A DNA stretch of 32,373 nt from Neolecta irregularis DAH-3 (Eukaryota): assembly GCA_001929475.1 (NCBI GenBank), contig LXFE01000826.1:1-32373 (forward strand), given 5' to 3'. Under the pieces are notes generated by a model, which had not been told where the DNA came from, made no database searches, and saw nothing but the letters and a program-made list of their open reading frames with translations. Each line of letters opens with the position of its first letter. Positions within the stretch are counted from its first letter, which is position 1. The translations under genes were made by a program, and so were the position numbers. Below are positions 17,969 through 20,338 of this stretch, piece after piece.

Positions 17969-20338
17969 TTAATAATATTCCCTCTCATCGTCAATGACCT
18001 GAACTTCCCGGACAGCTCGACTACTTTTCATTTTTTTCTCTGGCCTCTGAGTGAATGATCCATTGGAATGCGTTCGTTTCTTGCTAGGGGGGTGCTCCTG
18101 GGATAAATCATCTTCATCGTCCTCCGTCGTGTCACCGCCAGCTTCAGGAGGTGCTGGTACAGAGAGGTCGGTATGGAGATAGCTCTCCCGCGGCACTGCA
18201 ATGGATTCTTTCTTTAAAATACTTTCCTCCATTTGTCTTTGGACAAACTAATATGTCAGCCGAAAGAAAATCCAAAAGAATACACAATGATGTATAAGCA
18301 GGGTAGGATCGAAGTAAAAGTCTAATTTCTGTTGAGCTTTGGAAGTCTTGATGACTTTTGTATTTGGCTTAGCAACTCGTCTAGATTGGCTTCCCCGAGC
18401 AGCTTTAGGGTACTGATTCTCTATGAACCCCTCCCTTTCGAGTCGATTGAGGATTTGAGTCAAGACTTCAAGGTCACAAGCTTCAGTCAGAGCCTACACC
18501 AAAATAAAAAAAAAGCATACATAGTCGATCAGAGAATGCTTTGTTAGTCTTTGGAAATCCTTCTTCCCAGAGAATTTTCAAAGATCGTCGAAAGACTGCC
18601 AAATCACAAAGGCTGTGAAGAGTTTTCACTTCGGATTTTTCGAGGAGACAATCATAGCAGATGTGTTGATCGGGGATCCTTTCATCCTCGCCCGAATGAT
18701 ACCCGTAACACCAGACATGAACCCAGCTCTCGCACTGTTCACATTGAATCGACATAATCAGCCGCGCAGGTACATCTACAATACCATATCGCCGTCTGTT
18801 GCAGGATCAAGACAAGCGCAGTAAACTCCAGTTTTACTCAATCTTCGTTTTTTCTTTTTCAGGGTTGACATCAATTGTCGAGATTTTTCCAAGGTAAGCT
18901 GGAGCTTCTGATTCTTTTTGAAAATTTGCGTCATAGGCGCAGAGTGGATAGTCAAAGAATCTGCAACTTCTAAGCCTGTTGCGGATATATTCTTAGGGTT
19001 AAGGCTAGCTCTCTGGTTGACATCGATGATAGAAAGAGGGACTCGAGGTGATTGAATTTGTTGAAGTGGCGGGGTAGCATCGTCCACGAGCGGCTGCGTA
19101 GCAAGAAGCTCTTGATCATCTCCGGGTGCCTTTAACTTGAGGAGTTAATAGTTGACACTATTTAGAATTCACAAACCATTCCTCTGAGTCTCATTAAATC
19201 TTCACTACGACGAGACCAGTGTCGATCATCACGCTTCAAGGTATGTTTGGCAACAAGTTCAGATTTTGGTAGATAACTCTTCTCCACAATATCCTGATCG
19301 ATAACTATGGGTTGATTGATATCTTCTTCCACATTCTTCGAGTTGCTATTCACAATTTCCGGAGGTAAAATACCCTTGACGGCAGGAAAGTTGTCCCTCT
19401 CCTCAACAGTCGAAATGACTACTCCAACGCTGCAAGGTCAGAATATTCAGGGAGGAGTTGATTTGCACCTGTGAAATCCGGCATTCATTGATCCTCCGGC
19501 GAGTCGAAGTATTTGTTGTTCGTCAGTAGAGTTCATCAGGAACTTTTCCTCGTTCGTGGAATCTCGAAATCCCGGGGGCTGGTAATCTGTCGGAGTATTT
19601 TCTGTATAGAATAATTTAAAAGTTATGTTTCGGCATTCTGAGGGTAAGGATGCATCCGTAAACCTGTCCTTACCTGGCAAAGTATTGAGATTCTGTGTGA
19701 TCATAATCATTCGTCTCATGAGCAGCTGGTGGCTTCGCTTAGCGCTGACAATACTGATTGGTTGAACAATCGTTCCGTCCAAGTTCCTGATTTCCATCGT
19801 CGTTTCACATGTATAATTGAAGTTGAAAATGTATGCTTCGGCAATATCGTGGGGTCGATTCGGATCCAGAAATATAGCGAGAATAAACGATTTAAGGTAT
19901 TTTTGGTAGATAGCGTCATATATGCCTTTCTCCTAGAAGGCCCTGAGACGTGTAGCCCAAGTTTGAGCTGCGTACCAGATAATCAAGCAACTGATCTGCC
20001 TCCTCAGAATGACCACGCTTAAGCTTCTTAACTCTGGTGGAGCTTGCAGAATTGCTCGAGAGCCGCCCTCGATGGGATTCTGAGTCCTCGTCGGAAATTC
20101 TGTCGTCATAGAAGGTGCTTTCTGGAAATATGCCGCTGAATTGATGTCAAATACTGAGACTGTGGGCTCTAAACGCTTACCGAAGAAAGGTAATACTCCC
20201 TAGGCTGGCTGAAAGAAGAGATTCAACGAGCTGCAGACTTGATTGTATAGTCGACAAGGCGACACTTTGACGCTGAGTTCGATGGAGCTATCAATCAGCA
20301 TCTAGTAAGTGAATCTAATGGACCTGAATAGTAGCCAT
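17969..20338 (-). CDS. HOP1: Meiotic HORMA-domain axis protein with PHD finger and winged-helix region, ~672 aa
   Basis: HORMA (ITFLRGIFPE, EKGIYDAIYQKYL, TFKLFYTENTPTDYQPPGF), PHD (CAC..DGDMIQCEQCESWVHVWCYG..HICYDC), wHTH-like ILNRLEREGFI, and a basic C-terminal closure-motif-like tail. Introns 20323-20288, 20180-20136, 19975-19933, 19673-19638, 19468-19430, 19176-19136, 18784-18750 (non-AG acceptor), 18520-18481, 18283-18248; CDS 2019 nt. Confidence 0.88.

Follow-up and report, generated by a model that had tools for sequence, protein, structure and literature searches.

In the post-catalytic spliceosome of yeast, the last nucleotide of the intron (G-1) is paired with the first (G+1) and the A at -2 with the branch A; a conserved Prp18 loop braces the nucleotides at -3 and -4 (10.1101/212811). 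Deletion of this loop (S187-I211) in Saccharomyces cerevisiae increases the use of non-consensus 3′ ends, and cells lacking Prp18 activate BG ends as well as ends whose distance to the branch point is 7-10 nt (Roy et al., 2023; PMC10711555). In the human protein, H289 and R291 touch the 3′ splice site in its docked state as well as FAM32A (10.64898/2026.08.05.741260). On the other hand, neither Prp18 nor Slu7 appears among the components listed for Stentor, yet its introns are mostly GU-AG (PMC9505925). Non-AG acceptors of U2-type introns are already known as rare or alternative sites. In the curated annotation of the fungus Ganoderma lingzhi, GT-CG, GT-TG and GT-GG introns account together for 0.09% (PMC11590231, Table 1), and all minor splice pairs make up 0.26% in a table of fungal annotations (PMC7072748), a paper whose main text names neither Neolecta nor GT-CG. 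The main text of the genome paper of Neolecta irregularis (PMC5309816) makes no mention of introns, splicing, meiosis or HOP1, and a literature search, with supplements and most subscription journals outside its scope, found no account of non-AG ends in Neolecta or of its Prp18.

HOP1 and Its Seventh Intron

The window, by which we mean the whole analyzed stretch of 32,373 nt (contig LXFE01000826.1 of N. irregularis DAH-3), carries the HOP1 coding region on the minus strand at 17969..20338, as defined by the introns of a transcript-derived contig, by translation and by Pfam matches to the HORMA and PHD domains. The public record (OLL24421.1) annotates the product as "Meiosis-specific protein HOP1." The coding region consists of 10 exons and nine introns of 35-45 nt, and with the cut described below it encodes 672 aa comprising a HORMA domain (main stretch at 19450..19932, minus; PF02301, E 3.5e-33), an intron-split PHD finger (18648..18820, minus) and a winged-helix-like stretch. 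Intron 4 (19638-19673, minus) is 36 nt long, in frame and stop-free; it is spliced in the same contig, and its retention would add 12 residues within the HORMA domain. Elsewhere in the window, a 201-nt tandem repeat of 1.9 copies that are 93% alike is found at 15127-15501, with related peptide repeats nearby (within about 14800-16500), and two adjoining modelled genes of 215 residues each at 12702-14284 (plus strand) are alike at their starts and probably represent a tandem duplication.

The seventh intron of the coding region, which lies in phase 0, is a 35-nt GT-CG intron at 18750..18784 on the minus strand, where all of the following elements are located. From 18784 to 18750 it reads GTATTG...GCTGAT TATGT CG, followed by ATT CAA TGT. 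Its 5′ splice site, GTATTG (18779..18784), stands at the 60th percentile of modelled donors, and its branch-point motif, GCTGAT (18757..18762), at the 86th percentile; the putative branch A, assigned from the motif, is 18758. The acceptor, TCG (18750..18752), has C in place of A at position -2 and keeps the G at position -1, 8 nt past the branch A. The other eight introns of HOP1 end 6-11 nt past the modelled branch A; a clear branch motif is missing in two of them. A TG located three bases upstream of the CG (18753..18754) is in frame and would add a Ser. The next AG (18735..18736), also in frame, lies 23 nt past the branch A and 15 nt beyond the CG; this is the acceptor of the public model, and its use would make a 50-nt intron and delete the residues IQCEQ, including C441. 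A further AG at position 9 of the intron is too near the donor. Retention of the intron would end the protein at 440 aa, at an in-frame TAG (18776..18778).

U12-type introns are marked by an extended RTATCCTT donor and are processed with U11/U12 snRNAs. The donor of HOP1 intron 7 reads GTATTGTA, and a U12-type intron was rejected, as was a canonical GT-AG intron, given the CG in the assembly and in the DNA run X1. With its consensus-like GT donor, its close branch motif and its removal from RNA at these ends, the intron is of the U2 type, and its end fits the BG class (CG, GG or TG near the branch point).

RNA and DNA Evidence at the Acceptor

The RNA evidence consists of one contig from one run, X2, which is listed as "DNA?" and bears an organism label that differs from that of X1. 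This contig, the only one of the run that covers HOP1, is without all nine HOP1 introns and is therefore treated as transcript-derived. Position 18749 is joined in it directly to 18785, so that exactly 18750-18784 is skipped, together with the eight other introns, all of which are GT-AG; assembled contigs drop minor forms, and the sequence of the skipped introns, including base 18751, is not visible in X2. HOP1 intron 7 is removed at the CG. Over about 2,200 exonic bases, X2 differs from the assembly once, at 19075 (Thr342 to Pro). The X1 contig, with a depth of 396, has C and shows no difference from the assembly at 18750-18751, although the assembly may have been built from X1, which is then not independent of it; X1 does differ from the assembly at 18508, within an intronic T run. 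The differences at 19075 and 18508 reflect either alleles or strain differences.

A sequence-only reading of the window had proposed a non-AG acceptor, GT-CG or GT-TG, within the PHD finger of HOP1. The X2 joint confirms the non-AG acceptor and settles the choice in favor of CG; the TG end, which would give a 32-nt intron and an extra Ser, is absent from the X2 contig and is ruled out as the main form. That reading had also suggested inspecting 18750-18751, where a consensus error might restore an AG; none was found in X1. Its other proviso, that transcripts might use only the downstream AG, did not come true, as the X2 contig uses the CG. A joint slid by one base (GG..TC) was rejected, since it would lose the GT donor too. 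A-to-I editing is unable to turn C into A, and it was rejected as a route to AG because it makes the wrong base change.

The PHD Finger and the Public Hop1 Model

Cleavage at the CG restores the zinc ligand C441 and the spacing of the PHD finger, and the resultant Hop1 protein has an intact PHD finger. All eight zinc ligands (C427, C429, C441, C444, H449, C452, C469, and C472) are present in the CG form, the order of ligands in the Hop1 PHD finger being that described in PMC12365614. C427 and C441 are 14 residues apart; in the solved holozoan Hop1 PHD finger, the first and third zinc cysteines (C284 and C298) are likewise separated by 14 (PMC12365614). The public protein OLL24421.1 is identical to the CG form minus exactly the five residues IQCEQ. 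A relative, P0004, which is 79% identical over the matched part, reads DGDMILCEQC at this place, and its alignment to 9myp_A, the solved holozoan Hop1 domain, is gap-free over the junction. P0004 passes the Pfam cut-offs for the PHD domain, whereas the AG-based Neolecta model fails them (12 bits against 27). P0003 and P0004 were the only homologues to come out of a second search made with the PHD region. The stretch that follows the PHD finger gives a sub-threshold MarR match, and P0004 aligns to 9myp_A through the same stretch. Because the AG-based public model is without C441 and the X2 joint lies at the CG, the public Hop1 model is wrong.

Most of what the sequence-only reading had said of the protein holds in the 672-aa frame and in the Pfam matches to HORMA and PHD: the identity of the gene and its PHD finger, the string DGDM-IQCEQC produced by splicing out 35 nt, the loss of IQCEQ with a zinc-ligand Cys at the next in-frame AG (C441), and the stop on retention (TAG, 18778-18776; 440 aa). 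The distance of 8 nt from the branch A, which it had likened to that of neighboring introns, falls within the 6-11 nt of the other eight.

Candidate Non-AG Introns in the Rest of the Genome

A gene model of our own, and a weak one, was trained on 671,249 bases (4.7% of the genome). The long contigs of this survey were picked from a list of matches to a donor-branch-BG pattern, although none of the nine candidates described below is among its listed matches; the genome-wide count of the pattern itself is uninformative (145 matches against 111 in a reversed control, many of them with an AG one base earlier). Of the modelled AG introns (n = 1,365), 93% are 32-44 nt long, and 1,248 of the 1,365 end 6-10 nt past the branch A. 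Only four end at least 15 nt past it, against the 23 nt of the AG at 18735. When restricted to AG ends, the model recovers all eight RNA-shown AG introns of HOP1 and places the end of intron 7 at this downstream AG. When allowed non-AG ends, under one flat penalty for all 15 of them, the model chooses the CG end of HOP1 blind at a penalty of -3.4, though not at -5.0, and the choice at -3.4 is therefore not attributed to chance. This is the sole non-AG call among the 67 modelled introns of the window. Three of the 67 are GC-AG introns (14843-14882, plus; 8274-8241 and 7764-7726, minus).

Non-AG ends were called for 19 of 1,367 modelled introns. Ten of these calls were dropped, either for an AG nearby or for weak flanks, and nine were kept, the HOP1 intron not being among them. 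An in-frame G-ending site is available in seven of the nine kept calls, as opposed to four of 18 out-of-frame sets (Fisher P = 0.011), and in six of seven against four of 14 under a stricter penalty (P = 0.024); two of the nine have no in-frame G. Under a strict flank filter, which left seven non-AG calls of 363, G was not in excess at the ends as called (2/7), and long introns called with AG gave a null result (4/10 against 4/20, P = 0.38). These introns are calls of the model, and the strong branch points among the non-AG ones are partly selected by it. Four of the nine kept calls are pinned by homology; all four end in G and all belong to non-meiotic genes. An aldo-keto reductase intron with a TG end is pinned by 2alr_A (110/111) and an ABCD transporter intron with a TG end by 7rr9_A (612/613). 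A DAP3 intron ending in TG and an inositol 5-phosphatase-like intron ending in GG are pinned by contiguous Pfam positions, to the precision of the Pfam alignments. The transporter and DAP3 introns are located on the minus strand of one contig (G000:C2660, L090-L092).

An in-frame G is also present in three unpinned calls, in genes for a PfkB kinase, an EF-hand protein and a putatively TERT-like protein, the last of these being labelled by a motif in a gene without a Pfam hit. On G000:C2660, the ABCD transporter, TERT-like and DAP3 genes contain three TG-ending candidates within 18 kb (minus strand, 5923-5889, 15288-15253 and 23532-23498). An Exportin-5-like gene (G000:C554:26196-26160, minus; L078) has a candidate intron with a strong branch motif and neither an AG nor an in-frame G; the alternatives here are a non-G end, for instance TAT, and an AG intron of 64 nt. 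By a rough count, non-AG introns that keep the G amount to 5 to 8 of 1,367 (0.4-0.6%). A genome-wide tolerance of G-ending non-AG acceptors in Neolecta is thus well supported by inference from this survey.

Prp18 and Other Components of the Spliceosome

Prp18 is encoded by a single-copy gene in this genome (OLL24750.1, P0006; G000:C702:2495-3682, minus, L014). Its conserved loop (residues 255-279) reads GHAANPIGIAIAGIKEK and aligns without gaps to yeast S187-I211. N261 replaces a Trp that 146 of 146 homologues have, among them those of Saitoella and Pneumocystis, which belong to the same subphylum. H258, I267 and K273 occur in none of the homologues, K271 occurs in one of 120, and besides the Trp the N, T, M, V, H and R positions of the loop are changed. 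By motif spacing, K271 and K273 would correspond to H289 and R291 of the human protein. Mismatches over 13 conserved columns of the loop are fewer in 142 of 144 homologues than in Neolecta Prp18. The divergence of the loop relative to the rest of the domain is not significant, either with one set of conserved columns (7/15 against 4/24, P = 0.068) or with another (8/20 against 9/35, P = 0.36). The second half of the loop is variable in some homologues as well, and the G-I-H-x-R motif is missing from 19 of 72 full-length homologues too, in many of them probably through mis-annotation.

The U6 core, U2AF1, Slu7, Fyv6, FAM32A and the alpha-finger of Prp8 are all present and ordinary by eye. The U6-binding domain of Prp8 sits on a 1.3-kb contig, and partial matches on two more small contigs (G000:C2538, C4303 and C2568 in all) are possibly fragments or decayed copies. 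The U6 snRNA gene (L121:323-372, minus; G000:C1963) contains a GT-AG intron of 50 nt that separates the ACAGAGA box from the AGC triad, a place at which U6 of Schizosaccharomyces pombe also has an intron.

A Probably Tolerant Spliceosome

We consider it probable that HOP1 intron 7 belongs to the ordinary U2 type, that its CG acceptor is obligatory and that it is cut by a tolerant spliceosome. The introns of this genome would have a typical length of about 38 nt and would stop 6-10 nt past the branch A. Once branching has occurred, a G inside that interval would be docked by the spliceosome, with G-1 pairing to the donor G+1, and loss of the pair between A-2 and the branch A would be tolerated if no AG is in reach. 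The cut site would then be set by its distance from a strong branch point. Such a tolerance would be a genome-wide property, affecting about 0.4-0.6% of modelled introns, and not a device of HOP1. The altered Prp18 loop may be its likeliest molecular cause, a link that we infer only tentatively. It is possible, if doubtful, that Neolecta has a naturally remodelled spliceosome, in which a Prp18 loop without the invariant Trp and the docking His and Arg would permit cuts 6-8 nt from the branch point with A-2 dispensable, and in which obligatory NG acceptors would be needed by dozens to a few hundred genes, including HOP1.

The tolerance might also be independent of Prp18, a sub-case of the preferred explanation that shares its probability and to which we give somewhat less than an even chance. 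Here, the geometry of short introns, with an AG-independent first step and a very short distance from branch to end, would combine with weak selection in a small population, and the Prp18 loop would be a bystander or have decayed later. Such a view is consistent with the non-significant divergence of the loop, with the low rate of such ends in Ganoderma (PMC11590231) and with the existence of human TG acceptors (PMC2374985). It is opposed by the invariance of the lost Trp in all 146 homologues, Saitoella and Pneumocystis of the same subphylum included, and BG ends near the branch point are precisely the class activated by loss of Prp18 in yeast (PMC10711555). A different explanation, and a distinctly unlikely one, is that the CG is an artefact of the genome copy, either an error or a private or heterozygous A-to-C change, and that the RNA came from an allele with AG. 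Variation does exist, at 18508 in X1 and at 19075 in X2, and both the possible use of X1 for the assembly and the invisibility of the intron in X2 leave room for this; against it, the assembly and the X1 contig both have C, and random damage to acceptors would fall on the G and on the A with equal frequency, whereas the G is kept in seven of nine candidates and in all four that are pinned. It is very improbable that splicing really takes place at the AG at 18735 and that the PHD finger of Hop1 is broken. This AG is in frame and canonical, and both the public model and our AG-only model use it, but it lies far beyond the usual range from the branch A, P0004 retains the five residues that it would delete, and the X2 contig contradicts it as the main form.

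The sequence-only reading had gone on to propose that an inefficient acceptor acts as a switch of regulated splicing in a meiosis-specific gene. The weak acceptor would keep HOP1 off, or limit it to a HORMA-only product of 440 aa, and the CG cut would be permitted only by a meiotic activator or by reduced competition for the spliceosome. The idea is reasonable because budding-yeast meiotic genes are controlled via weak splice signals: their introns are often non-consensus and need Mer1, Nam8, Tgs1 or Npl3 (PMC7969001). HOP1 is moreover annotated as meiosis-specific, retention of intron 7 leads to an early stop, and no other intron of the window received a non-AG call. However, inefficiency of the acceptor is not supported, given the high rank of the branch point and the assembly in X2 of the CG-spliced form alone, the latter a weak argument as contigs drop minor forms. 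Nor is meiotic regulation supported, since the same class of end occurs in constitutive, non-meiotic genes. In addition, the yeast examples are rescued through the 5′ site, the branch point or a hairpin, and correction of the 3′ site of SAE3 gives no rescue (PMC7969001). The RNA fold near the HOP1 acceptor is unremarkable (z 0.61), and two metagenome scans for the intron DNA of a relative, of which one gave 146 stretches, none confirmed, and the other gave 0, provided no confirmed intron showing conservation of the CG. A switch of this kind is unlikely, albeit compatible with the preferred explanation of an obligatory CG acceptor and a tolerant spliceosome.

If this tolerance is genome-wide and due to the Prp18 loop, Neolecta would offer a natural variant in which to ask why introns end in AG, and also a tool for studying what sets the minimum distance from branch to end. 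A spliceosome remodelled in this way would match, in a wild organism, the yeast mutant in the prp18 loop, and it would imply that the universal AG is largely enforced by one proofreading loop. AG-only gene finders would silently mis-model genes of this kind in this genome. Obligatory G-ending acceptors throughout a wild fungal genome would be a further variant of the known non-AG acceptors. The window itself contributes a CG case backed by RNA, through which the Hop1 model is corrected, and to this is added the altered Prp18 loop, of which the literature search found no report.

Comparison with Known Systems

Once the CG is used, the Hop1 protein of Neolecta resembles the meiotic HORMAD proteins with a PHD-wHTH region (PMC12365614; PDB 9myp) in having HORMA and PHD domains with like order and spacing of ligands. 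No difference was seen from the system as described there, the public Neolecta model being wrongly short of one ligand. In Neolecta, which is an early-branching ascomycete, the PHD finger of Hop1 is intact. A non-consensus signal in a meiotic gene is common to HOP1 and the introns of MER2, HOP2 and SAE3 in S. cerevisiae. The yeast introns, however, depend on a weak 5′ site, a branch point or a hairpin together with named activators (PMC7969001), whereas HOP1 shows no sign of regulation.

With respect to the acceptor, the human TG 3′ sites (Szafranski et al., 2007; PMC2374985) are likewise U2-type and non-AG with G at position -1. These human sites are alternative, whereas HOP1 intron 7 has no AG in reach and ends in CG. 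Ganoderma lingzhi has the same dinucleotide pairs in a fungus, but there they are no commoner than other odd pairs (PMC11590231), while in Neolecta the rough count of 0.4-0.6% is of ends that keep the G; the ratio of the two rates is indicative only, because the methods differ.

The closest parallel is S. cerevisiae without Prp18 or its loop (Roy et al., 2023; PMC10711555), in which the last G is also kept and A-2 is also replaced. The HOP1 CG, at 8 nt, falls within the 7-10 nt from the branch point at which ends are used in yeast prp18 mutants; the yeast ends are tied to the Prp18 loop, as the Neolecta end may be. By contrast, the BG sites described in that study are alternative and mostly unproductive, and they were seen in a mutant with RNA decay turned off, whereas the CG of Neolecta HOP1 makes an intact protein in a wild organism, in which Prp18 is present but altered.
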